Assembly: GCA_020853395.1 (NCBI GenBank) | Contig: JADYYY010000011.1 | Location: 362,166 to 426,165 of the forward strand | Source: Acidobacteriota bacterium | GTDB taxonomy: Bacteria; Acidobacteriota; Vicinamibacteria; Vicinamibacterales; SCN-69-37 | Direction of reading: 5' to 3' | DNA: 64,000 nucleotides | Shown: one piece after another, positions 5,450 through 28,528 of the stretch | How positions within the stretch are numbered: the first letter of the stretch is position 1 | How the letters are laid out: each line of letters starts with the position of its first letter | Position numbers and translations under genes: made by a program | Notes under the pieces: generated by a model | The model's database searches: none | Seen by the model: only the letters and a program-made list of their open reading frames with translations | Told to the model about the DNA's origin: nothing

Positions 5450-5453
<4 letters not shown>
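3285..5453 (-). CDS. xanthine dehydrogenase-family molybdopterin-binding subunit, IorB-like, with a Tat signal
   Basis: I trimmed the track ORF 3285..6131 to the ATG at 5453. The N-terminus carries the twin-arginine motif FDRRDFIKLTTTGLLVMF. The body is a long aldehyde-oxidase/XDH-type sequence (GGGFGGKS, PSVVPMGAVIANAV). The start overlaps the stop of the upstream 2Fe-2S subunit by 4 nt. Confidence 0.9.
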
Positions 5454-5929
<476 letters not shown>

Positions 5930-6045
5930 ACGGCCAATTATCGGCGAGGAGTCTGGAAATGTCGCGATTTGTTCTCTGGGTGTCGGTGCGACTCTTTGGT
6001 CGTCTGGTGGCCTGGAAAGGCGCGTCCGCGACACCGCCCTGCCGG

Positions 6046-6687: not shown

Positions 6688-6808
6688 GCGAGCTTATTAT
6701 CCCGCGGGGGCATTGAAGAGTTGATGCCTGTGGTGCAGGCTGATACCAACGATGGCCTGGCCATGAGCGGCGAGTGGGGCGTCGTTGGTCGGGCGTGATG
6801 AGCGAGTG

Positions 6809-7741
6809 ATGAGTCGGGAGGAACACGTGCTGACACGACGCGATCTGCTGGCCTCGATGCTCGTCGCTGCCGGTGCGCCGCTCGTTCGGACAACGTCTGC
6901 GTCCGCGGTGCAAACCGACGGCATGGCCGAGCTGGCGCTCTGCGGCTGGGACGAGGTGTTCATCGTGCGGATCGGCCGCTCGTCGCAACCGCCGGACAAG
7001 GTCTGGTCGTGGCGCGCCGCGGACGACAGCGCCATTCCGGCTGCGTTGAAAGACGCCTTTCGCACGACCGACGACTGCAAGCCGGTCGACGACGGCCGCG
7101 CCATCCTGATCTCGTCGTCATCGGGCGCGATCGCGCTCGTCGATCGCGCCACGCGGCGCGCCCGGTTCCACGCGCCCGTCGTCAACGCGCACTCGATCGA
7201 GCGGCTGCCGGGCGGCCGCGTCGCCGCGGCGGCGTCGGTGGCCACCGCCCCAGGCGGCAACCGCATCGTCGTCTTCGATGCCGCGAGCGGACAGGAGCTG
7301 GCGAGCGACGCGCTGCGATCGGCGCACGGGCTCGTATGGGACGACGCGGGCCGGCGGCTCTGGGCGCTGGGCGGCGACGTGCTGCGCGCCTACGACGTCG
7401 GCGTGGCCGGCGGGCCAACGGCGCTCACGCGCATCGACGAGGTGCCGCTGCCGACGCGAGGAGGCCATGACCTCGTGCCGCTGCCGGGATCGCCGCACCT
7501 CTTCTTCAGCACGGAGTCGGGCTGCTACCTGTTCGACCGCGAGACGCGTGGGATCGTCCCGCACGAGAGCCTCGGGCCGATGGTGAACGTCAAGAGCTAC
7601 TCGGTGCACGTGCGCGCCGGCCGCGTCGCCTACATCCAGGCCGAAGGGACGGATTGGTGGGCCGAGCACGTGCACTTCCAGCGGCCAGACGGCCAGATCC
7701 GCCTGCCCGGCGCCCGGCTCTACAAGGCTCGCTGGCTCTGA
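6809..7741 (+). CDS. hypothetical Tat-signal exported protein (family not confidently recognised, possibly propeller-like)
   Basis: The ATG at 6809 gives MSREEHVLTRRDLLASMLVAAGAPLV, a twin-arginine signal. The remainder has balanced composition with repeated hydrophobic-Gly-Asp strands. Confidence 0.6.
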   Translation: MSREEHVLTRRDLLASMLVAAGAPLVRTTSASAVQTDGMAELALCGWDEVFIVRIGRSSQPPDKVWSWRAADDSAIPAALKDAFRTTDDCKPVDDGRAILISSSSGAIALVDRATRRARFHAPVVNAHSIERLPGGRVAAAASVATAPGGNRIVVFDAASGQELASDALRSAHGLVWDDAGRRLWALGGDVLRAYDVGVAGGPTALTRIDEVPLPTRGGHDLVPLPGSPHLFFSTESGCYLFDRETRGIVPHESLGPMVNVKSYSVHVRAGRVAYIQAEGTDWWAEHVHFQRPDGQIRLPGARLYKARWL

Positions 7742-7771
7742 CCGGACCGCGCGCCGCCTCGCGCGAGCAGG

Positions 7772-11981: not shown

Positions 11982-12011
11982 GCCGTCGATCCGCTCTCCG
12001 GCGCTCCGCGG

Positions 12012-14450: not shown

Positions 14451-15613
14451 GCCCGTTCCTCCAGCACGCGGCAGGTCTGCCGCGCGACGACCAGGTTCTC
14501 GTTCGTACGCACGACGCGGACGTCAGGCCGCCCGCCGGGCGGGCTGATGAGATCCGCCGACGCGGCATTCGCCCGCGCGTCGAGACGAACCCCGAGGTGC
14601 TCGAGACCCTCGCAGACTTCCCGGCGGACGTCGGCCGATCGTTCGCCGATGCCGGCCGTGAACACGAGCGTGTCGAGCCCGCCGAGCGCAGCGGCGAACG
14701 CGCCGATCTGCTTGCGTACGTGGTAGCAGAACATCGTGATGGCGAGCGCCGCCTCGGGGCGCGTCGCGCGCTCGTCGAGCAGCGTCTTCATGTCGCCGCC
14801 CAGACCCGACACGCCGGCCAGCCCCGACTCGCGGTTCACGAGCGCATCGAGCGCCGGCGCGTCGTAGCGGTGCACCGTCGCGAGATGCAGCAGCACGCCG
14901 GGATCGAGATCGCCCGAGCGCGTGCTCATCATGATCCCGCCCGTCGGCGTCAGGCCCATCGTCGTGTCGATCGACACGCCATCGGCGACCGCCGCAAGAC
15001 TCGCGCCGTGGCCCAGGTGAGCAATGACCGCGCGGCCGAGCCGCTCGGCGCCGATGGTGTCGACCACGTACTCATACGAAAGACCGTGGAACCCGTACCG
15101 GCGGATGCCGCGGTCCCACAGCGTGCGCGGGAGCGCCAGCCGCCGTGCCCGCTCGGGCATGCGGTGATGGAAGGCCGTGTCGAAACAGGCGACTTGCGGG
15201 AGGGCAGGGAAGAGCGCGCTGGCGGCCGCGATGCCCGAGATCTCGGCGGGAAGGTGCAGCGGCGCGAAGGGAACGAGCGTCTCGAGCGTGGCCACGAGCG
15301 CCCGACCGAGGCGCGCCGGCCCGGTGTACGTCGCGCCGCCGAACACGACGCGATGGCCGATCGCCGCCGGCGCCGGCAACCTGGCCTCCCGGAGGTCCCG
15401 CACGGCAGCTTCGACGGCGGCACGGTGATCCGCAACCGGCCGCGATCGGCGCACGAGCTCGTTGCCGCGGCCATCCTCGAGCCAGGTGGTCGTCCCGCTT
15501 CCGCCGAGATCCTCGGCGGCGCCGGCCGCGAGCAGGGTGTCCGTGCGCCCGGCGACGTCGAAGAGCGAGAATTTCAGCGACGAGGAACCGCAGTTCAGGG
15601 CGAGAACGACCAT
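14447..15613 (-). CDS. ackA: acetate kinase
   Basis: [18 protein letters not shown] and later [12 protein letters not shown] and VFTAGIGE are acetate kinase motifs. The stop overlaps the xfp start (ATGA at 14447-14450). Confidence 0.95.
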
Positions 15614-15789: not shown

Positions 15790-17781
15790 ATGTTCCTCGA
15801 TCGCCGCGACGCCGGCGCCAAGCTGGCCACGTTCCTGCGCGAGTACGCGAACCGGTCCGATGTCCTCGTGCTCGGGCTGCCGCGCGGCGGCGTCGTCGTC
15901 GCCGCCGAGGTCGCACGCGCGCTGGGCGCACCGCTCGACGTGTTCCTCGTCCGCAAGCTCGGCGTGCCGGGCCAGCCCGAGCTGGCGATGGGCGCGATCG
16001 CCGAGGGCGGCGTTCGCGTGCTCGATCGGCAGTTGATCGATATGGCCGGCGTGCCGGACGCGCTCGTCGAGCAGGTCGCCGTGCGCGAGCGGCTGGAGCT
16101 CGAGCGCCGCGATCGGTTGTATCGCGGCGATCGGCGGCGCCCCGACCTCGCCGGCCGCACGCTCATCGTCGTCGACGACGGCCTGGCCACGGGCGCGACG
16201 ATGGAGGCAGCGGTGAAGGCGCTGCAGTCGTTCACGCCTGCCGCCATCGTCGTCGCCGTACCGGTCGGCGCACCCGAGACGTGCCGTCGCCTCTCCTCGC
16301 TGGTCACGGCCGTCGTCTGCGCGGAGATGCCGCGCGACCTTCGGGCGGTCGGCCTCTGGTATCGCGACTTCTCGCAGACGACCGACGACGAAGTGCGCGC
16401 GCTCGTCGGCGCGGCGCCTGCTGTTCCCGGACGGCCGGTGCGGCGTGCGTCGCCCGCAGATCTCCCCGCGTTCGTCCGCGAGTGCGGGCAGCCGCTGACA
16501 GGGGCGCCGGCCGAGTACGACGCGCTCGTCGCCGAGTTGGCGCGTGCGCGCGTCGTGCTGATCGGGGAAGCGACGCATGGCACGCACGAGTTCTACGAGC
16601 AGCGTGCGCTGCTGACGCGGCGGCTGATCGCCGAGCACCAGTTCGCGGCCGTCGCCGTCGAGGCGGACTGGCCCGACGCGTTCAGGGTGAACCGCTACGT
16701 GCGCGGCGATGGGGGCGACGCGAGCGCGGCCGCCGCGCTCGGCGACTTCGAGCGGTTTGCTGCCTGGATGTGGCGCAACGCCGACGTCGTCGCCTTCCTC
16801 GACTGGCTGCGACAGCGCAACGAGAGCCTGCCGCCGGCGCGCCGCGCAGGCTTCTACGGCCTCGATCTCTACAGCCTGCACGCCTCGATGCGCGCCGTGA
16901 TCGCGTTCCTCGAGCCAATCGACCCGGCGGCCGCGGCGCGGGCGCGTTCGCGCTACGCCTGCTTCGACCGGTTCGGCGACGCGATCGAAGCGTACGCGCA
17001 CGGCGCCGGGCTGGGCCTCGAGCCGTCGTGCGAGCGCGACGTGCTGTCGCAGCTCCTCGATCTGCGAGCGCGCGCGGCGGAGTACGCCCGCCTCGATGGC
17101 CGGCTCGGTCCGGACGATCTGTTCGCCGCCGAGCAGAACGCGCGCGTCGTGCGCAACGCCGAGGCGTACTACCGGACGATGATGGGCGGCCACGTCGAGT
17201 CCTGGAATCTGCGCGACCGTCACATGACCGAGACGTTGCTCGCCTTGATCCAGCACCTGTCGACGGGTGGTCACGCCTCGCGCGTGGTCGTGTGGGCGCA
17301 CAACTCGCACCTGGGCGACGCCCGCGCGACCGAGATGGGCGAGCGCGGCGAGCTGAACCTCGGCCAGCTCGTGCGAGAGCATTTCGGCCGCGACGCCGTA
17401 TCCGTGGGCTTCACGACCCACGCCGGCACCGTCACGGCCGCCGCGGACTGGGACGGACCAGCGCGTCGCCGCCGCGTGCGGCCGTCGCTCGCCGGCAGCG
17501 TCGAGCGCGTGTTCCACGACACGAACCGCGCTCGGTTCCTGCTGTCGTTCGCCGGCGACCCGGAGCTGGCCTCGGCGCTCGAGGTACGGAAGCTCGAACG
17601 CGCGATCGGCGTGCTGTATCGGCCGGAGACGGAGCGGCGCAGCCACTACTTCCACGCGCGCTTGTCCGCGCAGTTCGACCACGTCATCCACATCGACGAG
17701 ACGCACGCGCTCGAGCCGCTCGAGCGGACTGCACACTGGGAGGCGGGCGAGGCGGCCGAAACGTACCCGTCGGGACTGTAG
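15790..17781 (+). CDS. fusion protein: phosphoribosyltransferase domain + erythromycin esterase-family domain
   Basis: The N-terminal ~215 aa is PRTase-like (VLGLPRGGVVVAAEVA, LIVVDDGLATGATM). The C-terminal ~430 aa carries erythromycin-esterase family motifs (VVLIGEATHGTHEFY, YGLDLYS, VVWAHNSHLGDAR). Confidence 0.85.
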   Translation: MFLDRRDAGAKLATFLREYANRSDVLVLGLPRGGVVVAAEVARALGAPLDVFLVRKLGVPGQPELAMGAIAEGGVRVLDRQLIDMAGVPDALVEQVAVRERLELERRDRLYRGDRRRPDLAGRTLIVVDDGLATGATMEAAVKALQSFTPAAIVVAVPVGAPETCRRLSSLVTAVVCAEMPRDLRAVGLWYRDFSQTTDDEVRALVGAAPAVPGRPVRRASPADLPAFVRECGQPLTGAPAEYDALVAELARARVVLIGEATHGTHEFYEQRALLTRRLIAEHQFAAVAVEADWPDAFRVNRYVRGDGGDASAAAALGDFERFAAWMWRNADVVAFLDWLRQRNESLPPARRAGFYGLDLYSLHASMRAVIAFLEPIDPAAAARARSRYACFDRFGDAIEAYAHGAGLGLEPSCERDVLSQLLDLRARAAEYARLDGRLGPDDLFAAEQNARVVRNAEAYYRTMMGGHVESWNLRDRHMTETLLALIQHLSTGGHASRVVVWAHNSHLGDARATEMGERGELNLGQLVREHFGRDAVSVGFTTHAGTVTAAADWDGPARRRRVRPSLAGSVERVFHDTNRARFLLSFAGDPELASALEVRKLERAIGVLYRPETERRSHYFHARLSAQFDHVIHIDETHALEPLERTAHWEAGEAAETYPSGL

Positions 17782-17790
17782 AGATCGACC

Positions 17791-18453
17791 ATGACGAAGG
17801 CCATCAGGCTCGCCGCTGGCGAGGCGATCCTCGACGCCGATCTCGGCATGCCGCCCGGCCCGCCGGCCGGCATCGTCGTCTTCGCGCACGGGAGCGGCAG
17901 CAGCCGGCACAGCTCGCGCAACCGGTTCGTGGCGCGCCGGCTCGAGGACGCCGGCTTCGCCACGCTGCTCGCGGATCTGCTCACGGCCGGCGAGGAGCGG
18001 ATCGATCGCGTCACCGCCGAGTTCCGATTCGACATCGACCGGCTGGCCCGGCGCGTCGTCGCGATCAGCGACTGGCTGGCGGGCGAACACGAGTACGCCG
18101 CGCTGCCGGTGGGCTTGTTCGGCGCGAGCACGGGTGGCGGCGCGGCGCTGGTCGCGGCCGCGCGGCGGCCCGAGCGCATCGCGGCGGTCGTGTCCCGCGG
18201 CGGCAGGCCAGACCTCGCCGGCGCCGCGCTGGCCCACGTGCGCGCGCCCACGCTGCTCATCGTCGGTGGCGACGACGAGCCGGTCATCGAGATGAACAAG
18301 GACGCCAGGCGGCAGATGGCGGGCGTCGTGTCGCTCGTCATCGTGCCGGGTGCGACGCACCTCTTCGAGGAGCCGGGGACGCTCGAACGCGTCGCCGACG
18401 AGGCCGCGGCCTGGTTCAGGCGCTACCTGGGAGAGACGCGTCCGCCTCGGTGA
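17791..18453 (+). CDS. dienelactone hydrolase-like alpha/beta hydrolase
   Basis: IVVFAHGSGSSRHSSRN, the nucleophile elbow GLFGASTGGGAAL and a C-terminal His (GATHLFEEPG) support the call. The start is 9 nt after the preceding stop. Confidence 0.8.
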   Translation: MTKAIRLAAGEAILDADLGMPPGPPAGIVVFAHGSGSSRHSSRNRFVARRLEDAGFATLLADLLTAGEERIDRVTAEFRFDIDRLARRVVAISDWLAGEHEYAALPVGLFGASTGGGAALVAAARRPERIAAVVSRGGRPDLAGAALAHVRAPTLLIVGGDDEPVIEMNKDARRQMAGVVSLVIVPGATHLFEEPGTLERVADEAAAWFRRYLGETRPPR

Positions 18454-20056
18454 GGCGGAGCAGATCGCCGAGGACCGCGTCGGGCCGTGCGACCGCGGCT
18501 TCGATCAGCGCGAGATAGCGGGCCATGAACGCCGCGATCGCCGCCGGGCGGTACTTCTTGCCGTCGAAGCTCATCACCGCGATCACGCGAGGCTGCAGAT
18601 CCTGCGTCGAGATCGACAGACCCCAGCCATCGTCTGCGGTCGCCCGGCCTCGAACCAGCTCGATCGCCGTGTCCTTGAGCTCCAGCGCCCGCGGCAGGCT
18701 TCGCGAGTGCTCGTAGATGACCGAGATCGCCGGCGCCGGGCGTCCCCGAGCCTGCAGCGCTTCAGAGAGATCGTCGAACGGCATGTCCTGATGGGCCGAA
18801 GCGAGCCGGACGACGCCGTGCGTCGCCCGCAAGTGATCGAGGAACGCGGCGGACCGATCGACGCGGACGCGCAGCGGCAGCAGGTTGACGTAGCAGCCGA
18901 TGGCTCGCGACAGCGCCGATGATCCGCGCTCCGAGACGTAGGTGCCGACGATGGCGTCGGGCTCGCCGGTGGCGTCGGCCACGAGCGCCGCCAGCGCCGC
19001 CAGATGGATCGAGAACAGCGTCGTCTGCTCGCGCTGGGCGAGCGCGCGGAGCAGCGAGTCATCGGCGAGGATCCAGCGGAACGCGTCGATCGGCGGATCG
19101 GGCTCGACGAGATCGGGCCGCCGCTCGAACGGCAGCACCATGCGCGGCAGCGGCGGTTCGAGCAGCGCCGTCCACCAGTCGAGCAGCGCGCGGACACGCG
19201 GTCCGCCAGGACGAAGCTGCTCGCGCTGCAGCCGCGCGACGTCGCCGACCTGCACGGCCGGCGGCGGGAGCGCGGCGGCCCGCCCGTCGAGTGCCGCTGC
19301 GTAGCACTCGGCCAGCTCCTCGTAGAACACCCGGAAGGCGTACGCGTCGATGACGAGATGGTGCAGCGCGAGCACGATGCGCCAGTCGCGCTCGCCGACC
19401 CGGATCACGACAGCGCGCAGGAGCGGCCCGTTGTCGAGGCGCATCGGCCGCTGCTGTTCCTCGCGCATGAGGCGGTCGGCGTCTGCCGCCGGATCGGCCG
19501 CCGGACGCACGTCGTACGTCACGAGGTCGGGCCGGCCGGGCGCGTGAACGACCTGCGCCGGCTCGCCGGGCCGATCGAGGAACGTCGTTCGCAGGATCTC
19601 GTGGCGGGCGATGAGATCGCGGAGCGCGCGACCCAAGGCCGCGACGTCGAGATCGCCGGTCACGATCCAGCGGCGCACGATGACGTTGCGGTCGCCAATC
19701 GGGCCGTGCTCCGCGTGGCGCCAGAGGCGCGCCTGCTGGTAGGTCAGCGGCGCCTCGCGCTGCTCGCCCGTGGCGATGGCAGCCGGCGCGACATCGTCGC
19801 GGCCGCACGTCTCTTGGGCGATCGCGCGCGCCGCGTCCGTGATGGTCGGCGCGTCCCACAGGAGCATGGCCGGCAGCTCACGATTCAGCCACTCGGCCAG
19901 GTCGCCAGTGATCGTGAAGAGCGCCAGCGAGTCGAGCCCGAGCGAGAACAGCGGCTGCGTACGGTCGAGGGACGCGGGCTCGATGCTGAGCGCGGCGGCG
20001 ATGTGCCGCACGAGCCATGCCTCGATGACGTCGGTGGTCTTCAGTCCGTCGTCCAT
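18416..20056 (-). CDS. carrier protein (T/PCP) + condensation (C) didomain protein
   Basis: I trimmed track ORF 18416..20488 to the ATG at 20056 (MDDGLKTTD). The phosphopantetheine site is LFSLGLDSLALF. The C-domain core is LALHHLVIDAYAF (HHxxxD). No A, KS or TE domain is present. Confidence 0.85.
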   Translation of the reverse strand: MDDGLKTTDVIEAWLVRHIAAALSIEPASLDRTQPLFSLGLDSLALFTITGDLAEWLNRELPAMLLWDAPTITDAARAIAQETCGRDDVAPAAIATGEQREAPLTYQQARLWRHAEHGPIGDRNVIVRRWIVTGDLDVAALGRALRDLIARHEILRTTFLDRPGEPAQVVHAPGRPDLVTYDVRPAADPAADADRLMREEQQRPMRLDNGPLLRAVVIRVGERDWRIVLALHHLVIDAYAFRVFYEELAECYAAALDGRAAALPPPAVQVGDVARLQREQLRPGGPRVRALLDWWTALLEPPLPRMVLPFERRPDLVEPDPPIDAFRWILADDSLLRALAQREQTTLFSIHLAALAALVADATGEPDAIVGTYVSERGSSALSRAIGCYVNLLPLRVRVDRSAAFLDHLRATHGVVRLASAHQDMPFDDLSEALQARGRPAPAISVIYEHSRSLPRALELKDTAIELVRGRATADDGWGLSISTQDLQPRVIAVMSFDGKKYRPAAIAAFMARYLALIEAAVARPDAVLGDLLRLTEADASLPGSA

Positions 20057-21735
20057 GTCTGCAGCGTTCTCGAAAGGAACTGATCGCGGCAGACGTGCCG
20101 CTGGATCTTGCCGCTCGACGTACGCGGCAGCGTGCCGGGCCTGATCGGCAGGACGAGGTGCGGCTGGACGTCGTGGTGCTCGGCGACCCGGCGCCGGACG
20201 ACGGCTTCGAGCGCGGCGGTACCGGCGCGCCCGGCACTGCGCGCGACCTCCAGCACGATCACCACGCGCTCCACGTCGTCGACGTCCACCGGGAAGGCGG
20301 CGCACCCGTGCGTCCGGATCGCCGGATCGCACGCTTCGACCGTGTGCTCGATGTCGGCGGGATGATGGTTGCGGCCCGAGACGATGATGATGTCCTTCAC
20401 GCGGCCCGCGACGAACAGCTCGCCGTCGTGCACGAACCCGAGATCGCCCGTGCGCAGGAAGTGGCCGCCGGCATCGCCGGCCGCGCATGCCCGGAACGTG
20501 TCGCCGGACTCGCGCGGACGGCTCCAGTAGCCCGCGGCGACGTGCGGGCCGGCGACCCAGATTTCACCCACCCGATCGGGACCGCACGGTTGTGCGGTGG
20601 CGGGATCGACGATCGCGATGCGGCCGTCGCCGTAGGGCGTGCCGCAGCCGACGAGCGTGCGGGCCGGCGCGTCGCCGGCCGCGATGCGCACGCACCCGTG
20701 CGCGAGCGCGTCCGCGTCGAATGCGCGGGTGGTGACGGCGGCGTCGTGCCGGCAGCCCGCGGCCATGAGCGTCGCCTCCGCCAGCCCGTAGCACGGGCGC
20801 AGCGCCTGGCGGGAGAAACCTACCGGCGCGAAGCAGGTCGCGAACCGTTCGAGCGTGCGCGCGCGCACCGGCTCGGCTCCAACGTACGCGCGCAGCCAAT
20901 GGCTCAGGTCGAGGTCCGACATCTGCTCGGTCGTCACGCGCTCCGCGCAGAGGTCGTACGCGAACGTGGGCCCTCCGGACACCGCGGCGCGATAGCGCGA
21001 GATCGCTCGCAGCCATCGCACCGGCTTCATGAGGAAGGCTTCGGGCGGCATCAGCACGGACAGGTTGCCGGTGTACACGCCGCGCAGAGCGCCGGCCACG
21101 AGGCCCATGTCGTGAAAGGGCGGCAGCCAGCTCACGTGCGGGCTGGCTGCCGGCAGGTGCATGAACTGCTCCATCATCTGGAGGTTGGCCAGGAGACTGG
21201 CGTGCGTCACCATCACGCCCTTGGGCAGCGACGTCGACCCCGAGGTGTACTGCAGCAGCGCGACACCGTCGGAGGCGAGCGAGGGCGGCACCCACGCGGC
21301 GCCATCCGCGTCGAGCGTCCCGACCGGCAGCCAAGTCACCTCGGGCATCGCCGCTTCCAGCGCGGCGCGGTACCGATCCAGCACGGAGGTGACGCAGAGC
21401 GCGTAGCGCGGCGACGCGTCGCGTGCGATGCCGTGCAGCCGATCGACGTGGCGAGGCGCACGCGGTACCGGCACGGGCACGGCGATCGCGCCCGCGTAGA
21501 AGCAGCCGAACAGCGCGGCGACGAAGTCCAGGCCCGGCGGGCACAAGAGCAGGACGCGCTCGTCGCGCGCGCGGCGGCCGTGCAGGGCTGCCGCGATCTG
21601 CCGGGCCCGGGCATCCATGGCCCCGAAGCTGGCGGCGTCTTCGCGCTCGCCGTCCGGGAGGAAGACGAAGGCGCGCGCATCGCCGCGCTCGTCGGCGCGG
21701 GCTCTGACTAGGTCCGCGAACGTTCGCGCCTGCAT
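20041..21735 (-). CDS. fatty acyl-AMP ligase (FAAL-type adenylating enzyme)
   Basis: I trimmed track ORF 20041..22278 to the ATG at 21735 (MQARTFADLV). LQYTSGSTSLPKGVMVTHASLLANL, YGLAEATL, TGDLGF and SSGKIQR are present, with length and order typical of FadD32-like FAALs. The stop overlaps the T-C start by 16 nt. Confidence 0.9.
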   Translation of the reverse strand: MQARTFADLVRARADERGDARAFVFLPDGEREDAASFGAMDARARQIAAALHGRRARDERVLLLCPPGLDFVAALFGCFYAGAIAVPVPVPRAPRHVDRLHGIARDASPRYALCVTSVLDRYRAALEAAMPEVTWLPVGTLDADGAAWVPPSLASDGVALLQYTSGSTSLPKGVMVTHASLLANLQMMEQFMHLPAASPHVSWLPPFHDMGLVAGALRGVYTGNLSVLMPPEAFLMKPVRWLRAISRYRAAVSGGPTFAYDLCAERVTTEQMSDLDLSHWLRAYVGAEPVRARTLERFATCFAPVGFSRQALRPCYGLAEATLMAAGCRHDAAVTTRAFDADALAHGCVRIAAGDAPARTLVGCGTPYGDGRIAIVDPATAQPCGPDRVGEIWVAGPHVAAGYWSRPRESGDTFRACAAGDAGGHFLRTGDLGFVHDGELFVAGRVKDIIIVSGRNHHPADIEHTVEACDPAIRTHGCAAFPVDVDDVERVVIVLEVARSAGRAGTAALEAVVRRRVAEHHDVQPHLVLPIRPGTLPRTSSGKIQRHVCRDQFLSRTLQTWTTD

Positions 21736-23048
21736 CAGCCCACCGCCGTCGAGTCGTCGCGCGCGACGGCCGTTACGAGGAATCCGTGTTTCTGCCGCAG
21801 GGTGATCGCCGGATCCGGCTCCGGCTCGACCGCCCCGGCCGGCCGAATCCGCACGCGCTGCAGGACGATGGCGAGGATCAACTGCGCCTCGAGCAGGGCG
21901 AACGACTGGCCGATGCAGAGGTGGCGTCCGCCGCCGAACGGGAAGTACGCGTAGTGGTGCCGCGACGCCGCTCGTACGAACCGCTCCGGGTCGAAGCGGT
22001 CCGGGTCCGGCCAGAACGCCGCGTGCCGATGCGTCGTCCAGGCGCAGAGCAGCACGAGACCGCCGCGGGGGATCGGCACGCCGGCGATCTGCTGCGGCGA
22101 AACCGCCTGCCGCATCGTGAACGTCACCGGCGGATAGAGCCGCAGCACTTCCTGGATCACGCCGCGTGTGTAGTCGAGCGCCGGCATGTCTGCGGCCGTT
22201 GGCGTGCGGGCGCCGAGCCGCTCGTCGAGCTCCACGATCACCTGGCGTTCGACGTCGGGATGCCGGGTGAGCACCCACCAGAGCCAGGCGAGCGCCACGG
22301 CGGTCGTCTCGTGGCCGGCGATCAACATGGTGAGGATCTCGTCCCGGATGTCCGCGTGGTCGAGCGGCCGCCCGGTCGCATCGTCGGCCGTCTCGATCAG
22401 GGCCGTGAGCAAGTCCGCGGGACGCGACTCGACGTGTCGTCGATCGGCGATCAGCCGATCGACGTAGGCGTGCAGCGCGGCGAGCGCCGACCGGAACTCC
22501 GCCTGGCGCTGCGGCGTGAAGACGGGCGGCGCGACGTTGAAGGCGCCGCGCGCGATCGCGCTGACCTCGTCGATGACGCGGCTGAACGCCTCGTCGAAGC
22601 GCGCGGCGTCCTCGCCGAGGTCCACGCCGAAGAGCGCGCTCACCACGATCTCGAGCGTGAGACGCCGCATCTCGATCGCGACGTCGAAGGGCTCACCCGT
22701 ACGCATCGGCCCGCGCGCCCACCGATCCAAGAGCGCCAGCGTGTGGCGCACCACCGCGTCGCCGTAGCTGGCGACGCGGTGCTCGCCGAACGACGGCTGG
22801 ATGATCCGCCGGCGCCGCCGCCACACGTCGCCGTCGCTCGCCAAGAGACCGTTCCCCAGCACCATCCGGAAGAGCGCCGTCCGGATGAACTCGGGGTTCT
22901 GCAGCACCGCCTGCACGTGATCGGGATGGTTGAAGAAGTGGACGGGGCCGCGCGCGTTGTCGAAGCGCGCGATGTCGCCCTGCGTGCGCACCAGCTCTTC
23001 GACGAATGGCAGCGCGGAGGGCGGGGAAGGGTCGGTCCGGAGGCTCAA
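21735..23048 (-). CDS. cytochrome P450
   Basis: The heme loop is FPFGGGRHLCIGQSFA, with AGHETT (I-helix) and EVLRLYPP (ExxR). The start as given is TTG and is uncertain. The stop overlaps the FAAL ATG by 1 nt (TGATG). Confidence 0.9.
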   Translation of the reverse strand: MSLRTDPSPPSALPFVEELVRTQGDIARFDNARGPVHFFNHPDHVQAVLQNPEFIRTALFRMVLGNGLLASDGDVWRRRRRIIQPSFGEHRVASYGDAVVRHTLALLDRWARGPMRTGEPFDVAIEMRRLTLEIVVSALFGVDLGEDAARFDEAFSRVIDEVSAIARGAFNVAPPVFTPQRQAEFRSALAALHAYVDRLIADRRHVESRPADLLTALIETADDATGRPLDHADIRDEILTMLIAGHETTAVALAWLWWVLTRHPDVERQVIVELDERLGARTPTAADMPALDYTRGVIQEVLRLYPPVTFTMRQAVSPQQIAGVPIPRGGLVLLCAWTTHRHAAFWPDPDRFDPERFVRAASRHHYAYFPFGGGRHLCIGQSFALLEAQLILAIVLQRVRIRPAGAVEPEPDPAITLRQKHGFLVTAVARDDSTAVG

Positions 23049-23097
23049 AGCGTCGTGTATCGCGCCGGGGCGCCCTAGGATACCCCGGCCCGGCGCG

Positions 23098-24225
23098 TCA
23101 TCCGCCGGCGATCGTGGCGATGTCGGCGTCCGACAGCCCGCACGCGGCCAGAGAGGCGGGCCGGTAGGCAGGCGTGGGGTGCCTGGAAAGCCAAGCCCGT
23201 GCGGCCTGCTCGGCGGAGGCGGCCCACGGCAGCGCCAGCGTTGCGTGCAGCCGCCGGAGAACGCCGATCGGATCGGCGACGAGATCGTCGTAGTCCACGT
23301 CGATCAGGTGGCCAGGCGCGAACCGCACCGCGGCCGTGCTCGCTCGCCGAAGCGCCGCGCCCGCCATGCGGACGCATTCGGGGCCCACGGCGAGCGGATC
23401 GACCGCGTCGCTGTCGCCCGATCTCAGCAGATGGCACAGACGGGCGTACGACGCGATCGTGTCCGGCATCGCACGCCGAAGACGGAGCACGCGCACGTCT
23501 GGCCACACCGCCAGGACGGTCTCGAGATGCCAGAAATGGCTCGGGTCCTTGAGGAGGAGCGGCCGGGCGTCGCCGCCAGTGATCGCCTGGAGCGTGCGGG
23601 CGAGCTGCCGGTAGGCCGGCGTGAGGTCCGCGTGCATCTGCCACTCGAAGTACGAGGGCACGTGGTAGCGCGTGAACCAGGACGGCGCCGAGAACGTGTG
23701 TCCGAGCAGCAGGCTGCACTCGTCGGGATCGGTCGCGGCCATCGAATGCGCCGACCGCAGCGCCGGGAGCCGCGCGTAAACCGCGTCGATCTCCTGCTGC
23801 ACGGCCGCAATCTGACGCGCCCGCCCTGCGGCATCTTCCGGCGGCGTGGCGGCCCGGAGCATCTCCCATCGACGGACGGCCCGCACCTCGGGATTGCACG
23901 CGATGAGGTGCTGGAGAAGCGTCGTGCCGCTTCGCGGGAGGCCGGTGACGAGGATTGGGCTCGCGGTCGAGCTCGCACGATCCGCCTCGCCGTCGTGCGG
24001 CCGGACGAACCGCCAGCCAGCCACCGCGCAGCGGACGAGCTCCGCGGCGATTCGCCGTTCGCCCGCCGCGTGCAGCCGGGCGTCGTCTCTGAGCGATGTC
24101 ACGAAGGCGTCCAGCGCCGCGACATGAGGCGTCGCCGACACGTCGGTGCCCGCCAGCCGGCTGGCCGTTTCGAGGATGCGCCGCCGATCGAGCACGCCGG
24201 CTTCGAGCGCGGCGCCGCGCGTCAC
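23098..24225 (-). CDS. sulfotransferase family protein (PAPS-dependent type)
   Basis: This is the lower part of track ORF 23098..25548. I propose a GTG start at 24225 that overlaps the upstream stop (GTGA). The 5'-PSB-like motif is ILVTGLPRSGTTLLQHL. An Arg/Ser-rich 3'-PB-like region follows (RVLRLRRAMPDTIASY). Confidence 0.75.
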   Translation of the reverse strand: MTRGAALEAGVLDRRRILETASRLAGTDVSATPHVAALDAFVTSLRDDARLHAAGERRIAAELVRCAVAGWRFVRPHDGEADRASSTASPILVTGLPRSGTTLLQHLIACNPEVRAVRRWEMLRAATPPEDAAGRARQIAAVQQEIDAVYARLPALRSAHSMAATDPDECSLLLGHTFSAPSWFTRYHVPSYFEWQMHADLTPAYRQLARTLQAITGGDARPLLLKDPSHFWHLETVLAVWPDVRVLRLRRAMPDTIASYARLCHLLRSGDSDAVDPLAVGPECVRMAGAALRRASTAAVRFAPGHLIDVDYDDLVADPIGVLRRLHATLALPWAASAEQAARAWLSRHPTPAYRPASLAACGLSDADIATIAGG

Positions 24226-25454
24226 GGAAGATCGCGCAGCACGCGCAGCAGGTGGTCCACTTCGTCGGCCGTGTTGTAGTGGAGCAGGCCGATGCGGACG
24301 AGCCCGTCGGGCTCGACGCCGAGCACCTCGGTGAGCGGCAGCGCGTAGAAGTTGCCGCTCCACACGTAGACGCCGGCCTCGGCGAGCGTCCGCGCCACGT
24401 CGCCGGGCCGCATCGTGCGATGGCTGATCGCGAACGTCGGCACGCGCTCGTCGAACCTGGCCACGTCGGTGATGCCCCACGATCGAATCTGCGGCAGCGC
24501 GTCGAGGCCGTGCTGGAGGCGCTCGCCGAGCGCGCGTTCGTGCGCGACGATGGCGGCGAACGCCGCGTCGAGCGCCTCCGGGCGCGTGCGGGCGTCGTCT
24601 TCGCCGCGGCCGAGGCTCGCGATGTAGTCGATCGCGGCGAGCGTTCCGGCGATGCCTTCCGCGTTCGGCGTGCCGGTCATCCATCGCCCCGGCATCAGCT
24701 CCGGCGCGGGCCGTACCTTGTACGTCGGCAGCGTCTCGAGCAGATCGCGCCGGCCCCACATCAGCCCCACGTGCGGACCGAAGAACTTGTAGGCCGAGCA
24801 CACGAGCAGGTCGCAGCCCCACGCGGCGACGTCGATCCGCCGGTGCGGCGCGTAGTGGACGGCGTCGCAGAAGACCAGTGCGCCGGCGGCGTGCGCGAGC
24901 TCGGCGATCGTGCCGATCGGATTGACGGTGCCGACCGCGTTCGACGCGGCGCCCACCGCCACGAGCCGCGTGCGCGAAGACAGCTTCGACGCGAGGTCGC
25001 CGACGTCCAGCGTGCAGTCGGGGCGGATCGCCGCGTGTCGCACCTCCACGCCGGCCTCCTCGGCCGCGCGCGTCCACGGCGTGACGTTCGCGTCGTGGTC
25101 GAGCCGGGTGACGACGATGTTGTCGCCGGCGGTCCAGGTGCGGGCGAGCGCGCGGCTCAGCGCGAACGTCAGCGTCGTCATGTTGGCGCCGAAACAACAG
25201 CCGTCGGGGTCCGGCGCGCCCACGAAGTCCGCCGCCGCGCGGCGCGCCTCGGCGAGCATCGCGTCGCTCTCGCGGCTGGTGGCGAAGGCGCCGCCGTGGT
25301 TCGCGTTCGTCGTGGCGAGATAACGGCTCACGGCGTCGATCACGGTGCGCGGCACCTGGCTGCCCGCGGGGCCGTCGAAGAACACCGCCTCGCGGCCGGC
25401 GTCGCGCCGGCGAAGGGCTGGAAACTGCGCGCGCACGGCGCCGAGGTCGAGCAT
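24222..25454 (-). CDS. class-V aminotransferase-fold PLP enzyme (cysteine desulfurase-like family)
   Basis: The protein is 410 aa. The PLP-lysine context is LLVCSAYKFFGPHVG, with HDANV and the GTVNPI pattern of the NifS/CsdA-like fold. It resembles the uncharacterised VC1184-type subfamily (from memory). Confidence 0.85.
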   Translation of the reverse strand: MLDLGAVRAQFPALRRRDAGREAVFFDGPAGSQVPRTVIDAVSRYLATTNANHGGAFATSRESDAMLAEARRAAADFVGAPDPDGCCFGANMTTLTFALSRALARTWTAGDNIVVTRLDHDANVTPWTRAAEEAGVEVRHAAIRPDCTLDVGDLASKLSSRTRLVAVGAASNAVGTVNPIGTIAELAHAAGALVFCDAVHYAPHRRIDVAAWGCDLLVCSAYKFFGPHVGLMWGRRDLLETLPTYKVRPAPELMPGRWMTGTPNAEGIAGTLAAIDYIASLGRGEDDARTRPEALDAAFAAIVAHERALGERLQHGLDALPQIRSWGITDVARFDERVPTFAISHRTMRPGDVARTLAEAGVYVWSGNFYALPLTEVLGVEPDGLVRIGLLHYNTADEVDHLLRVLRDLP

Positions 25455-26332
25455 CAGCGCTTGAGGCCGCCCATGGCGTCGGACGTCTCGACGCCGAACT
25501 GGCGGAAGCGCCCGTACGTGGCGAGGCCGGACGTCTTCCGGCCGCCACGTTCGAGATACTCCTCCCGCATCTCGACCGGAATCGCCACGCCGAACTCCGA
25601 ATCGTGGCGGTAGCGCGTCGTCATCACCGCGCGAATGGATGCGGGGTCGTCGATCCAGAGCTCGGTGCGCATGACGACGCCGTCGGCTTGCAGCCAGACC
25701 TGCCCCGACATCGGCATGTCGCGGCCGCCAGGGCCCGTGATGATCGTCGGGTGCGCGTGCTCCCTGTAGTCGATGCGAAACACCGGCGTCTCCTCCACCG
25801 GCTCCGCCTTCACGCCGGAGAACTCGAAGCGCGCGTGGTTCGCCCCGCGCAGAATCTGCAGCGCCAGGATCGGCAGGTTCATCGTCCGCGACACGCCGAT
25901 GTTGTAGCTCGCGCTCTGCGCGACGATCGCCTGCGCCTGGAAGAGGGCCAGCGGGTCGGGCACCGACAGCAGGCGGACGAGCCGCTGATCGTGATCGCGC
26001 ACGCGCTGGCCGTCCACCGAGTAGACGTCGCGGAACGGCAGCCAGCCGTCGCCGCTCGACAGCTTGACCATCAGGAAGTCGGAGACGAGCTCGCGGCGCC
26101 GAGTGGGCAGGCCGCGGCTGTTGCCGAGCGTCTGCACGTAGCGCTCTTCGGCCACGACGTTGGCGAAGGCGGTGTCGAACCGTTCGACGTAGTCGGCGGC
26201 CGTGCTGAGGAGCCTGTCGAGATCGTCCGGCTGCTGACGCGCGGCGATTCCGCCCGTGGCCAGCGCCGAGAGCGCGGCACCGGAGGCGATCGCGCGGGCG
26301 AGCCGAAAAGCGGGTGCCGTGCGGCTGGCCAT
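25454..26332 (-). CDS. hypothetical secreted protein (first gene of the operon)
   Basis: The ATG is at 26332. The signal-like N-terminus is MASRTAPAFRLARAIASGAALSALATGG. Composition is balanced (Y, F, K, N, I present). The stop overlaps the next ATG by 1 nt. Confidence 0.6.
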   Translation of the reverse strand: MASRTAPAFRLARAIASGAALSALATGGIAARQQPDDLDRLLSTAADYVERFDTAFANVVAEERYVQTLGNSRGLPTRRRELVSDFLMVKLSSGDGWLPFRDVYSVDGQRVRDHDQRLVRLLSVPDPLALFQAQAIVAQSASYNIGVSRTMNLPILALQILRGANHARFEFSGVKAEPVEETPVFRIDYREHAHPTIITGPGGRDMPMSGQVWLQADGVVMRTELWIDDPASIRAVMTTRYRHDSEFGVAIPVEMREEYLERGGRKTSGLATYGRFRQFGVETSDAMGGLKR

Positions 26333-26519
26333 GATCCAGGGGGTAGTCTACGACGACGACGGGCTGGTTCCTACCCGGTGTGCACGGCGAAGACCTCGCG
26401 ACTCGTGTTGTGGCGCGTTCGGCGGCGTCGCGGTGCTGGCGGCCAGGCGCGCTTCCGCCACGGGCCTCGGCTTCGGACCAAAGAGAAGTCCGGAGCTGCA
26501 GGGCCTGTGGGCCCGCCGG

Positions 26520-27119
26520 CTACGAGTCGACCTTCGTCTCGGCCGCAAGCGGTCGCGCGGCGGCCTCCGGCTCTGGCCGTGACGTCGCCCGATCGCGGGC
26601 CTCGGACGCGACCATCCGCCAGCGGATGTAAGTGCCGAATCGTCCGTCCGGACCTTGGGTATCGCGCACGAGGGCCGGGACCGCGCCCAGCTTCGCCATG
26701 GCGCCGTGGACGCGGCCGTTGTTGACGAGCGACCAGGCATCCACGGCCGGCAGCCCCATCGTCGCGAAGGCGAAGTCGAGGGTCAGGCGCGCGGCGAGCT
26801 GGAACAGCCCCGTGCCCCACCACGCCGGCCCGAGCGCGAAGCCCCAGTCCCAACCCGATTGGGAATCGCCGGGCACATGCGTATGGAGGCAGATGACGCC
26901 CGCGGCCCGGTCATACCCATCCGGGATGACGCTGAAGTACACCGCAAGCCCTTCGCACCGCCGCCGCACCGCCCAGTGGGCGAAGCGCTCGAATCCTTCG
27001 TGATCCGCAGGCGGCGCGGGGATGAACCGCGTGACCTCGGGCGTCGCCAGGTGCTCGACGAAGGCGGCCCGGTCGTCCGGGCGTACTTCGCGGAGCACGA
27101 CCCGGCTGCCCACGAGCAT
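26520..27119 (-). CDS. GNAT family N-acetyltransferase (RimJ/RimL-like)
   Basis: MLVGSRVVLREVRPDDRAAFVEHL...WDWGFALGPAWWGTGL fits the RimJ-like GNAT pattern. An alternative upstream start lies at 27179. Confidence 0.7.
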   Translation of the reverse strand: MLVGSRVVLREVRPDDRAAFVEHLATPEVTRFIPAPPADHEGFERFAHWAVRRRCEGLAVYFSVIPDGYDRAAGVICLHTHVPGDSQSGWDWGFALGPAWWGTGLFQLAARLTLDFAFATMGLPAVDAWSLVNNGRVHGAMAKLGAVPALVRDTQGPDGRFGTYIRWRMVASEARDRATSRPEPEAAARPLAAETKVDS

Positions 27120-27319
27120 CGGCGGTGCTGCCTGCCACCCGGCTGCGGCTCCGGTTTGCACGTTCGGTCGCCCCTCCAACGCGAGGCCGACCCTGCAACG
27201 CGAGTGCCGCTTCGCGGGAGATTCAGCCGGGGTGCCCTGGTAGGACCGAAAAAGCCGCGAGCTCGCGTGCGGGAACCGTGCGACCCCGTATACTGACGGC
27301 TCACCGGAGCATCGCCCCT

Positions 27320-28528
27320 ATGGACAACCTGTCCCGCCGGGATCTCGCGCGGGTGGCCGCCGGGCTCGCTGCCGGCGCGGCACTGCCCTCGATCGCCGAG
27401 CCGGCCGGCGCCCAGGCGTCGTCCGCCGCACCGTCCCCGACGAATGGCTACATCGGACCGCTCACGGGTGTGACGGCGACGGCGATCGCCGGTCGGGTGT
27501 TCGATCCGGTTGCCTATTCGCGAGGGCTGCTCGCGGCCGCGCCGCGTGCGTTGCGGTTCCAGGCGTCGACACGCCTGGAGGCCGAACGGTGGCAAGCGGC
27601 GCTCCGGACGAAGCTCGTCGAGCTGCTCGGGGGCATTCCGGCCGGCACCGTGCCGTTGCGTGCCGAGACGCTCGAGGTTCGCGAGTTTCCGCGGTACCGC
27701 CGCGAGAAGCTCGTGTTCGACTCGGCGCCTGGCGTGAGCGTCGTCGCCTACGTGCTCGCGCCTGTCGGCCGGCCGAGGCCGCTCGCGACGATGATTTGCG
27801 TGCCGGGTCATGGCCGCGGCGTCGACGATATCGTCGGCATCGACGAGGCGGGTCGGGATCGGAGCGACAAGGCGGGCTATCAGCACGATTTCGCGATCCA
27901 GGTCGTCGAGGCCGGGATGGCCGCGGTGGCGATCGAGCCGATGGGCTTCGGCGCCCGGCGCGACGAGCGCAACGCGCGCCGCGGGTTGGGGCAGAAGGCC
28001 TGCGACCCGACTGCCGGCGGTGCGCTGCTCGTGGGGCAGACGCTCCTGGGCTGGCGCGTGCGCGACGTGATGCGGACGCTCGACCTCATCGCCGAGCGTC
28101 CAGAGCTGGACGCGTCCCGCGTGGGCTGCATGGGGATCTCCGGCGGCGGCACCGTCACGCTGTTCTCGGCGGCGCTCGAGCCGCGGCTCGGGGCCGCGAT
28201 GGTGAGCGGATACCTGAACACGTTTCGCGACAGCATCGGCAGCCTCGTGCACTGCGCTGACAACTACGTTCCCGGCATCCTCGACTGGGCGGAGATGCAC
28301 GACGTCGCCGGTCTCATCGCCCCGCGGCCGCTGTTCGTCGAATCGGGGACGCGCGACGACATCTTTCCGATCGCCGCGAGCACCGAGAGCGTCGCGCGCG
28401 TGCGCGACGTCTACCGCGTGTTCGGGGCCGACGCCGCGCTCGACCACGAGATCTTCGACGGCGAACACTCGTTCTGGGGCCGGCGCGGGATTCCGTTTCT
28501 CGCCAGCCGGTTCGGGGCGGCCCGATGA
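27320..28528 (+). CDS. Tat-signal alpha/beta hydrolase (esterase-like)
   Basis: I trimmed track ORF 27125.. to the ATG at 27320 (MDNLSRRDLARVAAGLAAGAAL). The nucleophile elbow is CMGISGGG. The late Asp/His region reads ESGTRDDIFP...GEHSF. Confidence 0.7.
   Translation: MDNLSRRDLARVAAGLAAGAALPSIAEPAGAQASSAAPSPTNGYIGPLTGVTATAIAGRVFDPVAYSRGLLAAAPRALRFQASTRLEAERWQAALRTKLVELLGGIPAGTVPLRAETLEVREFPRYRREKLVFDSAPGVSVVAYVLAPVGRPRPLATMICVPGHGRGVDDIVGIDEAGRDRSDKAGYQHDFAIQVVEAGMAAVAIEPMGFGARRDERNARRGLGQKACDPTAGGALLVGQTLLGWRVRDVMRTLDLIAERPELDASRVGCMGISGGGTVTLFSAALEPRLGAAMVSGYLNTFRDSIGSLVHCADNYVPGILDWAEMHDVAGLIAPRPLFVESGTRDDIFPIAASTESVARVRDVYRVFGADAALDHEIFDGEHSFWGRRGIPFLASRFGAAR

Follow-up and report, generated by a model that had tools for sequence, protein, structure and literature searches.

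Gene layout and flanking regions

The window (the whole stretch of DNA analysed, 64 kb) contains a six-gene operon of an uncultured soil Vicinamibacterales (Acidobacteriota) bacterium, located at 18416-26332 on the minus strand. In order of transcription, the genes encode a secreted protein (gene 1), a class-V PLP enzyme (gene 2), a PAPS-type sulfotransferase (gene 3), a cytochrome P450 (gene 4), a fatty acyl-AMP ligase (FAAL; gene 5) and a stand-alone carrier-condensation (T-C) didomain (gene 6), with products of 292, 410, 375, 437, 564 and 546 aa, respectively. The original prediction of six minus-strand genes, including their coordinates and overlaps, was confirmed by direct reading of ORFs and sequence; an independent gene prediction for a Logan contig of identical sequence agrees, and identical copies are found on five contigs from four sequencing runs. 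Each of the predicted domain calls is supported by Pfam profiles, gene 1 being without a family, and the motifs on which they had been based (LQYTSGSTSLPKGV, LGLDSL, HHLVID, GLPRSGTTLL, SAYKF and the P450 heme loop, FGGGRHLCIG) are present in the translations.

All five junctions of the operon measure 49 nt or less, and four of them are overlaps: a 1-nt overlap read from the sequence as TGATG between genes 1 and 2 (25454), a GTGA overlap between genes 2 and 3 (24222-24225), another 1-nt TGATG overlap between genes 4 and 5 (21735), and a 16-nt overlap between genes 5 and 6 (20041-20056), all on the minus strand. Genes 3 and 4 are separated by a gap of 49 nt on the same strand (23049-23097) that contains a GC-rich hairpin (-34.2 kcal/mol over 71 nt), the stability of which is not distinguishable from background (z = -1.07 against shuffles); a search of this gap for a T-tract terminator found none. 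The six-gene block is made up of two translationally coupled triads. Its sole non-overlapping junction, with the hairpin, separates the triad of genes 1-3 from the triad of genes 4-6.

The only sizeable gap 5' of gene 1 is the intergenic region at 26333-26519 (minus strand, 187 nt), which presumably contains the promoter and the 5' UTR; a scan for the sigma-70 consensus found nothing there, a negative that is uninformative in an acidobacterium of 71% GC. Further upstream, 187 nt from gene 1, a co-directional GNAT gene (Acetyltransf_3, Pfam, 69.6 bits) is located at 26520-27179 on the minus strand; it is missing from the syntenic relative of 77% identity (L004/L005) and probably is not part of the six-gene unit. 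At the other end, gene 6 is convergent with a DLH hydrolase gene, with a 38-nt overlap of the 3' ends. The GC3 content is uniform over the operon and its flanks (0.85-0.94) and, thus, gives no sign of recent import.

The P450-FAAL-T-C genes

Gene 4 (21735-23048, minus strand; TTG start) encodes a cytochrome P450 (p450, 260 bits) with the heme loop FGGGRHLCIG, the I-helix motif AGHETT and the ExxR motif (EVLR) of this family; its relatives in the PDB comprise 7wzl, CYP97A3, P450 BM3 and CYP170A1. Homologues at 38-51% identity adjoin FAAL genes in three other loci (L011, L026 and L019), and in a further locus, P0002, a P450 gene is positioned directly upstream of the FAAL gene. The link between P450 and FAAL that had been proposed for the operon is therefore borne out by adjacency in other phyla, in one case (L026) with the same 1-nt stop/start overlap.

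Gene 5 (20041-21735, minus strand) encodes the predicted FAAL, with an AMP-binding domain (205 bits) and a DIP2-like C-terminal domain in Pfam. The protein matches PRK05691, the model of PvdL-type NRPSs, over positions 9-563 (508 bits). The top 15 matches in the PDB are all FAALs (1e-154 to 1e-65), the best being the Ols FAAL domain (7R7E-G, 1e-154), followed by LpFAAL, FadD32, FadD23, FadD28 and EcFAAL; adenylation (A) domains appear first at 1e-42. With the NCBIfam FAAL models the protein scores 383-427 bits, which is under their full-length cutoffs (600-775). Compared with three NRPS A domains it has about 24 extra residues (CRHDAAVTTRAFDADALAHG...) after YGLAE (YGxxE), a segment that we take to be the expected position of the FAAL-specific insertion. 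By these sequence comparisons, the gene 5 product groups with FAALs rather than with acyl-CoA ligases or the A domains of NRPSs.

Gene 6 (18416-20056, minus strand) encodes a PP-binding domain (residues 14-79, 45 bits) and a Condensation domain (residues 99-539, 199 bits) in Pfam, the latter near full length (PF00668, model positions 2-451 of 456). It matches PRK05691 over positions 602-1114, such that the FAAL and T-C proteins together are collinear with positions 9-1114 of this model, i.e. with the N-terminal ~1,100 residues of PvdL-type NRPSs. Just one orthologue of gene 6 was found (in the P0002 locus, 40% identity), and the T-C family is very rare. The GLDSL and HHLVID motifs are conserved in this orthologue (HHLLYD there), and the T serine and the C histidines are intact. 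The residue that follows the Asp of HHxxxD is A, not the usual G, in both proteins.

The best PDB matches of gene 6 are Txo1 and then PvdL (first C domain, 134.8 bits); the first C domain of PvdL follows the FAAL-T part of that protein. The C domains of CDA and surfactin, which are classical starters, reach only 57-62 bits, VibH (1l5a) is matched at 2.7e-7, and the score with the NCBIfam model of PapA5 (46.3 bits, cutoff 396) indicates that the C domain is not PapA-type. In a neighbor-joining tree of 24 C domains, gene 6 and its P0002 orthologue branch together as a deep clade of their own, separate from the other FAAL-preceded C domains; hence, the subtype and the acceptor are not readable from the phylogeny.

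P450-FAAL-T-C is a recurrent lipoinitiation cassette, with occurrences in Gammaproteobacteria, Abditibacteriota, Myxococcota and other Acidobacteriota; the order of the genes recurs in P0002, L011 and L026. It shares the domain order and the family models of PvdL-type FAAL-T-C lipoinitiation (N-terminus of the pyoverdine synthetase PvdL), the T serine and HHxxxD are intact, and several of the PvdL-type relatives have an associated P450 as well. For comparison, two PvdL-type loci, L018 and L019, represent single-module FAAL plus T-C-A-T-TE lipoamino-acid synthetases. In the window, however, the FAAL and the T-C didomain are split proteins that stop after C, the 64 kb lack an A, a second T and a TE domain, and genes for a sulfotransferase, a PLP enzyme and a LolA-like protein precede the cassette.

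The secreted protein, PLP enzyme and sulfotransferase

Gene 3 (23098-24225, minus strand) encodes a Stf1/Stf9-like sulfotransferase (Sulfotransfer_3, PF13469, 121 bits, cutoff 27). Its best and only strong solved relatives are 2zq5 (1.2e-31) and 2z6v (1.7e-20), which presumably are the mycobacterial Stf1 and Stf9; we know of no substrates for these two enzymes. They share with gene 3 an N-terminal extension of ~90 residues and the PAPS loop, the 5'-PSB loop PRSGTT of gene 3 aligning to the loops of both, and the match is limited to the alignment of residues 87-354. Apart from these, the PDB search returned only a tyrosylprotein sulfotransferase, with no CurM-ST (at E<=0.01) and no Stf0, both of which have solved structures; gene 3 is not the Stf0 of the sulfolipid-1 system. 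Nothing above 34% identity to gene 3 was found among 5.8 billion proteins, and the neighbourhoods of its distant homologues are unrelated.

Gene 2 (24222-25454, minus strand) encodes a class-V PLP enzyme (Aminotran_5, 232 bits, Pfam) that passes the NCBIfam model TIGR01976 (VC1184, 'cysteine desulfurase-like') with 485.6 bits (cutoff 352.35; model positions 2-401 of 401). The PLP lysine is present (SAYKF), whereas the catalytic Cys is replaced, with the GHHCA motif of SufS aligning to SGNFYA and no Cys at all beyond residue 219; the SufS model was not passed (237 bits, cutoff 475). An assignment of gene 2 as cysteine desulfurase (SufS/NifS/IscS) is therefore rejected. The best PDB match is Fgm3 (2.3e-52), and UstD, a decarboxylative aldol enzyme, is also listed. 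Fgm3 is a retro-aldolase that acts on 4-hydroxy-arginine, for which Y225 has been proposed as the general base (bioRxiv 10.1101/2023.03.21.533663). Like gene 2, Fgm3 is without the SufS catalytic Cys; it has a tyrosine, possibly this Y225, after the PLP lysine (KVYGPH), where gene 2 has F (KFFGPH). In addition, gene 2 belongs to the bacterial TIGR01976, a family of unknown function, and its reaction may differ from those of Fgm3 and UstD. With its catalytic Cys missing and a retro-aldolase as its nearest solved relative, gene 2 is not considered a sulfur donor, and the sulfur chemistry that the original prediction had allowed for this enzyme is unlikely.

Gene 1 (25454-26332, minus strand) encodes a protein with a signal-peptide-like N-terminus (MASRTAPAFRLARAIASGAALSALATGGIAA) and no match to any Pfam or NCBIfam family. 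Its AF2 model (pLDDT 85.7, pTM 0.80) gave LolA3, DUF1329, LolA and LolB as the best Foldseek matches in the PDB, with LppX further down the list. The matches to LolA-type structures are at E = 1.7e-5 and probability 1.0, with TM scores of just 0.37-0.45 (<0.5), and the predicted fold may be described as LolA-superfamily-like. With the periplasmic lipoprotein/lipid carriers LolA, LolB and LppX, gene 1 would thus share the predicted fold and a signal-peptide-like N-terminus, whereas it has no membership in their sequence families and represents a lineage-restricted family with variable neighbours. A total of 122 homologues were found, and the few with a named source are nearly all Vicinamibacterales MAGs; the family appears restricted to Vicinamibacterales-like genomes. 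The homologues at 44-48% identity are located in three unrelated contexts, one of which is shared by two of the four that were looked up. In locus L006, a member of the gene 1 family comes after a MacB-type ABC permease.

The coupling of gene 1 to the PLP gene is found also in the relative of 77% identity (L004), the contig of which ends there, so that the rest is unseen. The pair of secreted protein and PLP enzyme recurs only in this relative, the sulfotransferase is without any orthologue, and there is no such partnership of the three genes elsewhere.

Proposed pathway and competing explanations

The locus joins a common lipopeptide-starting fatty-acid cassette, here without its usual amino-acid-activating partner, to genes for a sulfotransferase, a PLP enzyme of an unusual kind and a secreted protein that resembles lipid carriers. 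Our preferred reading, judged to have just short of an even chance, is a lineage-specific operon that joins two translationally coupled triads and makes an acylated amphiphile. The most likely product, as judged from a single lineage, would be an amphiphile with an acyl group and possibly with hydroxyl and sulfate groups as well, e.g. a sulfated lipoamino-acid-like lipid or surfactant.

By homology, the FAAL adenylates a fatty acid and loads it onto the phosphopantetheine arm that T carries, from which the condensation domain (HHxxxD) passes the acyl group to a nucleophile; the P450 may hydroxylate the fatty acid or the acyl-S-T intermediate. Because there is no A-T module in cis, the nucleophile would be free or supplied in trans, i.e. 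a free amine, an amino acid or an alcohol, or an aminoacyl-carrier protein. Gene order suggests possible roles for the other three proteins: the Stf-type PAPS sulfotransferase might O-sulfate a hydroxyl group of the product, the Cys-less PLP enzyme might make or trim an amino-acid-derived head group (by beta-elimination, aldol or retro-aldol reaction), and the LolA-fold secreted protein might shield the amphiphile in the periplasm. The two triads have been seen joined in a single genome lineage.

The free-standing condensation enzymes VibH, SgcC5 and PapA5 work on soluble acceptors. If no NRPS acts in trans, the logic here would be the same, with a carrier-bound acyl group transferred to a free amine or alcohol by an enzyme of the C fold; the sequence relationship of gene 6 to VibH and PapA5 is weak, however, and here the donor T and the C domain form one protein. 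For this part of the pathway, the FAAL to T to C logic of the original prediction holds, given the collinearity with PRK05691, whereas the transfer to a soluble acceptor stays conjectural, as the relatives mostly carry an A domain.

Indeed, an A domain in cis accompanies almost every other relative of the C domain, which makes an NRPS partner in trans, outside of the window, a real alternative. The locus would then consist of two unrelated adjacent units: the P450-FAAL-T-C cassette would feed an NRPS module elsewhere in the genome, for the synthesis of a lipoamino acid or lipopeptide, and the secreted protein, the PLP enzyme and the sulfotransferase would serve another substrate. We regard this as plausible, if clearly below an even chance. 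Among the 27 related loci, 22 show an A domain near the C domain, which is nearly every locus with sufficient flank, and T and TE domains often accompany it; none of the 27 has a match to the sulfotransferase or the PLP enzyme. The P0002 locus pairs the cassette with a convergent C-A-T-TE gene and is without sulfotransferase, PLP gene and secreted protein, and the secreted-protein/PLP pair is found in a relative where the remainder is unseen. The original prediction had made its reading depend on co-conservation of the six genes, which the neighbourhood analysis did not find: what other genomes share is only the P450-FAAL-T-C half of the set. Also, the one junction without overlap falls exactly between the triads. 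On the other hand, this same-strand gap of 49 nt has no recognisable terminator and a hairpin not exceeding those of shuffled sequences, which favours co-transcription, and the partner module is absent within 64 kb. For the latter, the Pfam scans of 30 ORFs of the window, among them almost all of its ORFs >400 aa, detected no A, KS or TE domains, and a six-frame tblastn of the 64 kb with NRPS A, T and TE domains gave nothing at E<=0.01, while a C-domain control matched; the predicted lack of adenylation, ketosynthase and thioesterase domains in the window thus holds.

It appears improbable that the locus is a relic, i.e. a lipopeptide cluster that is minus its A-T-TE module and no longer productive. 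Such a loss would fit the sole member of its kind without an A domain in cis, and a T-C family of such rarity; against it, the three ORFs are intact with a GC3 content (0.89-0.92) like that of their neighbours, the GLDSL and HHxxxD motifs, the heme Cys and the FAAL core are preserved, and the copies on the five contigs from four runs are identical.

A pathway like that of sulfolipid-1 (sulfation of a sugar core and then PapA-type acylation; FadD23, Pks2, PapA1/2, Stf0 and MmpL8) or like CurM/Ols (sulfate-activated decarboxylative elimination to a terminal olefin, by a sulfotransferase-thioesterase pair that follows a KS-AT-KR-ACP module), both offered earlier as analogies, is very improbable and is contradicted on defining components: the window lacks KS/PKS, KR, TE and MmpL (Pfam scans for KS/PKS and MmpL) as well as any glycosyl or trehalose enzyme, the C domain is NRPS-type, and the sulfotransferase is Stf1/Stf9-like, with neither CurM-ST nor Stf0 among its PDB matches. 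The sulfolipid-1 analogy is therefore loose, and the CurM/Ols analogy fails on the type of sulfotransferase and the missing TE. The resemblance to CurM/Ols is that of the FAAL only, its best solved relative being the FAAL domain of an olefin synthase; on the side of sulfolipid-1, FadD23 is also matched by the FAAL, and the two solved proteins that are most like the sulfotransferase presumably are mycobacterial Stf enzymes.

Operon structure and base composition

The six open reading frames of the original prediction are present on the minus strand exactly where they had been placed, and an independent gene call on an identical public contig yielded the same six products: a secreted protein (gene 1), a PLP enzyme (gene 2) and a sulfotransferase (gene 3), together triad A, followed by a P450 (gene 4), a FAAL (gene 5) and a T-C protein (gene 6), together triad B. 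All five junctions were read from the sequence as predicted, i.e. TGATG at 25454, GTGA at 24222-24225, a 49-nt gap at 23049-23097, TGATG at 21735, and a 16-nt overlap at 20041-20056. Pfam assigned Aminotran_5, Sulfotransfer_3, p450, AMP-binding, and PP-binding plus Condensation domains, and the motifs quoted in the prediction were found in the translations. Its statement that A, KS and TE domains are absent was borne out by Pfam scans of 30 window ORFs, in which none was found; furthermore, six-frame tblastn of the 64-kb window with NRPS A, T and TE domains as queries gave no match at E<=0.01, and the C-domain control matched.

The GC content of the window is ~71% throughout, and GC3 is uniform (0.85-0.94) across all operon genes and their flanks; thus, nothing looks recently imported, and recent horizontal import of the operon was ruled out.

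The P450-FAAL-T-C cassette

The FAAL and T-C proteins align to successive stretches of PRK05691, a PvdL-type NRPS model (positions 9-563, 508 bits, and positions 602-1114, 195 bits, respectively), and together they therefore look like a PvdL-style initiation module split into two proteins. The FAAL has roughly 24 residues more than NRPS A domains in the alignment, a segment that sits at what we take to be the expected position of the FAAL insertion. Its nearest solved relatives in a PDB search were exclusively FAALs, of which the FAAL domain 7R7E-G, from the Picosynechococcus PCC 7002 olefin-synthase PKS (PMC11837247), ranked first (1e-154). For the C domain of gene 6, the top-scoring solved relatives were those of Txo1 and PvdL, and the PapA5 model scored 46 bits against a cutoff of 396; hence, a PapA-type identity was ruled out and the domain is assigned as NRPS-type. 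A neighbor-joining tree was star-like and gave no assignment of C-domain subtype. The P450 translation contains all catalytic motifs, and its solved relatives comprise 7wzl, CYP97A3, P450 BM3 and CYP170A1.

In a collection of 5.8 billion proteins, one real orthologue of the T-C protein was found (P0002; 540 aa, 40% identity), in which both the GLDSL motif of the T domain and the HHLVID motif of the C domain are kept. In the P0002 locus, P450, FAAL and T-C stand in the order seen in the window, and a C-A-T-TE gene in convergent orientation comes next; Pfam flagged neither a sulfotransferase nor a class-V PLP enzyme nor a gene 1 homologue there. This locus lies on a 21-kb contig (JGI 3300043331), with unknown proteins of 263 aa and 543 aa among its neighbours, and it has a single A domain for two C domains (T-C plus C-A-T-TE); accordingly, the C domain of the T-C clade of P0002 and the window may perform a non-standard step and not the usual first condensation.

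When 185,579 species genomes and JGI metagenomes were scanned, 27 more distant loci were obtained, of which at least seven have a close FAAL homologue just upstream of the T-C match. A homologous P450 is also present in L011 (Abditibacteriia), L019 (Myxococcota) and L026 (gammaproteobacterial MAG), and in the last of these the P450 and FAAL genes overlap by 1 nt, as in the window. An A domain lies near the C domain in 22 of the 27 loci, i.e. nearly all with enough flank, including FAAL plus (T-)C-A-T-TE in L018 and L019. P450-FAAL-T-C thus recurs as a unit, with an amino-acid module as the usual recipient of its product, and the window is the exception because it has no such module in cis. In the compact lipopeptide locus of the Abditibacteriia MAG (L011, 1-8809), the order is P450 - FAAL - (T-)C-A - C-T-TE - PPTase, with the P450-FAAL head as in the window plus a complete assembly line.

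In the GTDB genome scan, identities over the C domain reached no more than ~33%, and the window's own species is thus absent from that scan set; similarly, the metagenome scan with a T-C alignment recovered neither the P0002 contig nor any close relative. The exhaustive representative search with the T-C protein was dominated by giant multi-module NRPSs, with scores summed over several T-C pairs, and so told nothing about stand-alone T-C proteins; the context of P0012, a further protein looked up, was not informative. The C-domain clade of gene 6 is, as far as these sequence comparisons indicate, deep and very rare.

PLP enzyme, sulfotransferase and LolA-like protein

The PLP enzyme passes the TIGR01976 model ('cysteine desulfurase-like protein', a family of unknown function). 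The original prediction had considered sulfur chemistry from this enzyme; the catalytic GHHCA of SufS aligns to SGNFYA, and there are no cysteines past residue 219, so that a role as sulfur donor was ruled out and the enzyme should not be expected to mobilise sulfur, judging from its sequence. Among solved structures it is closest to Fgm3, a PLP retro-aldolase, and UstD is also among the matches.

In the sulfotransferase, the PAPS loop is present, and the only strong solved relatives in the PDB search are 2zq5 and 2z6v, which we take to be Stf1 of M. tuberculosis and Stf9 of M. avium. In the 5.8-billion-protein collection, identity to the sulfotransferase did not exceed 34%, and three distant homologues that were looked up (29-34% identity) lie in unrelated contexts. 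Likewise, tblastn over the 27 related loci gave no match to the sulfotransferase or to the PLP enzyme.

The gene 1 protein matches no Pfam or NCBIfam family and belongs to an unannotated family of >120 proteins, whose few named members are almost all from Vicinamibacterales MAGs, which makes it reasonable to regard the window as acidobacterial. Its AlphaFold model (pLDDT 85.7) was matched by Foldseek to LolA3, DUF1329, LolA, LolB and LppX (probability 1.0, E = 1.7e-5, with modest TM-scores of 0.37-0.45); together with a signal-peptide-like N-terminus, this modelled fold suggests a periplasmic carrier of hydrophobic ligands. In a 77%-identity relative, the pair of gene 1 and PLP gene is kept, with the 1-nt overlap and the flanking synteny as in the window; the contig stops within the PLP gene. 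Four homologues at 44-48% identity lie in three unrelated neighbourhoods. In L006, another locus with a gene 1 homologue (5302-8840), this homologue lies 48 nt behind a MacB_PCD/FtsX ABC permease gene, and an overlap couples it to the gene of a Pfam-less 402-aa protein; the arrangement of permease and gene 1 homologue recalls LolCDE-LolA and agrees with the predicted LolA-like fold.

Candidate pathway, alternatives and flanking genes

The gene content is confirmed and the gene combination is unique. The stand-alone T-C protein with no A domain nearby is unusual, as are the three genes attached upstream of the cassette, which encode the sulfotransferase, the desulfurase-like enzyme that lacks the catalytic cysteine, and the LolA-fold protein. 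Homology shows that the FAAL adenylates a fatty acid and loads it onto the T domain, and that the catalytically intact C domain transfers the acyl group; the conserved adjacency of the P450 points to action on the fatty acyl chain. With no A domain in cis, the acceptor would be either a nucleophile in free form or an amino acid on a carrier protein that acts in trans. From the operon structure, the sulfotransferase might sulfate the product at a hydroxyl group, the PLP enzyme might make or trim the head group, and the LolA-like protein might chaperone the amphiphile. Compared with a PvdL-type lipoinitiation module, the locus would work alike, with tailoring enzymes added.

That the six genes act as one such integrated pathway is a tentative reading, to which we give not quite an even chance. 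The original prediction had named co-conservation of the six genes as decisive; the six were not found co-conserved, and their functional link rests on one lineage. Functionally independent triads, with the P450-FAAL-T-C cassette serving an NRPS elsewhere in the genome, are a somewhat less likely alternative. The junction between the triads (23049-23097) is the only non-overlapping one of the five and contains a GC hairpin; however, the stability of this hairpin does not exceed that of shuffled sequence (z = -1.07), and consensus scans for promoters and terminators gave nothing above background, with no terminator detected in the 49-nt gap. Given the intact ORFs and motifs, the cassette is unlikely to be a relic. 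The proposed analogies to sulfolipid-1 (SL-1) and CurM/Ols pathways fail, since their defining components are missing from the locus, which belongs to none of the SL-1, PapA and CurM/Ols systems.

If the six genes act together, biosynthesis of a sulfated acyl lipid would become known for the first time in the Acidobacteriota, an abundant soil phylum with, to our knowledge, hardly any characterised lipids or natural products; the pathway would also represent an NRPS lipoinitiation module functioning without any adenylation domain, and would provide functions for the TIGR01976 PLP enzymes and for the LolA-like protein specific to Vicinamibacterales, both of them orphan families. With independent triads, the locus would be another, ordinary orphan lipopeptide starter cassette. 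A broader proposal is improbable at present, namely that Vicinamibacteria make sulfated acyl lipids or surfactants of a class not known before, by a route that uses no A domain, in which a FAAL-loaded T-C protein would acylate a free head group built by the cysteine-less PLP enzyme, with Stf-type sulfation and delivery to the envelope or the outside by the LolA-fold carrier. Literature searches on a FAAL / C / P450 / sulfotransferase cluster found no described pathway of this composition, in line with the original prediction, and no described Vicinamibacteria BGC of this kind was found in the literature.

A GNAT gene (Acetyltransf_3; 26520-27179, minus strand) lies 187 nt upstream of the operon on the same strand, between the operon and a divergent Abhydrolase_7 gene; the 77%-identity relative (L004/L005) lacks it, although the gene order is otherwise syntenic, and has an intergenic region of only 165 bp. 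At its 3' end, the operon converges with a gene for a small dienelactone-hydrolase-family protein, and the hydrolase and T-C genes share 38 nt at their 3' ends. The hydrolase gene follows that of a phosphoribosyltransferase carrying a fused erythromycin-esterase-family domain (PF05139, 430 bits), the two occupying 15790-18453 on the plus strand. An MprF-like lysyl-phosphatidylglycerol synthase gene adjoins an overlap-coupled phosphoketolase (XFP)/acetate kinase pair (9393-15613, minus strand), and an AT-skew spike (+0.287) at 10-12 kb falls inside the MprF-like gene. Two strongly coding genes without a Pfam family encode large proteins of 509 aa (7772-9301, minus strand) and 641 aa (28525-30450, plus strand); at the position matching the latter, L004 has a Pfam-less 642-aa gene in an Abhydrolase_7 / AP_endonuc_2 / DUF6807 / ALGX block.
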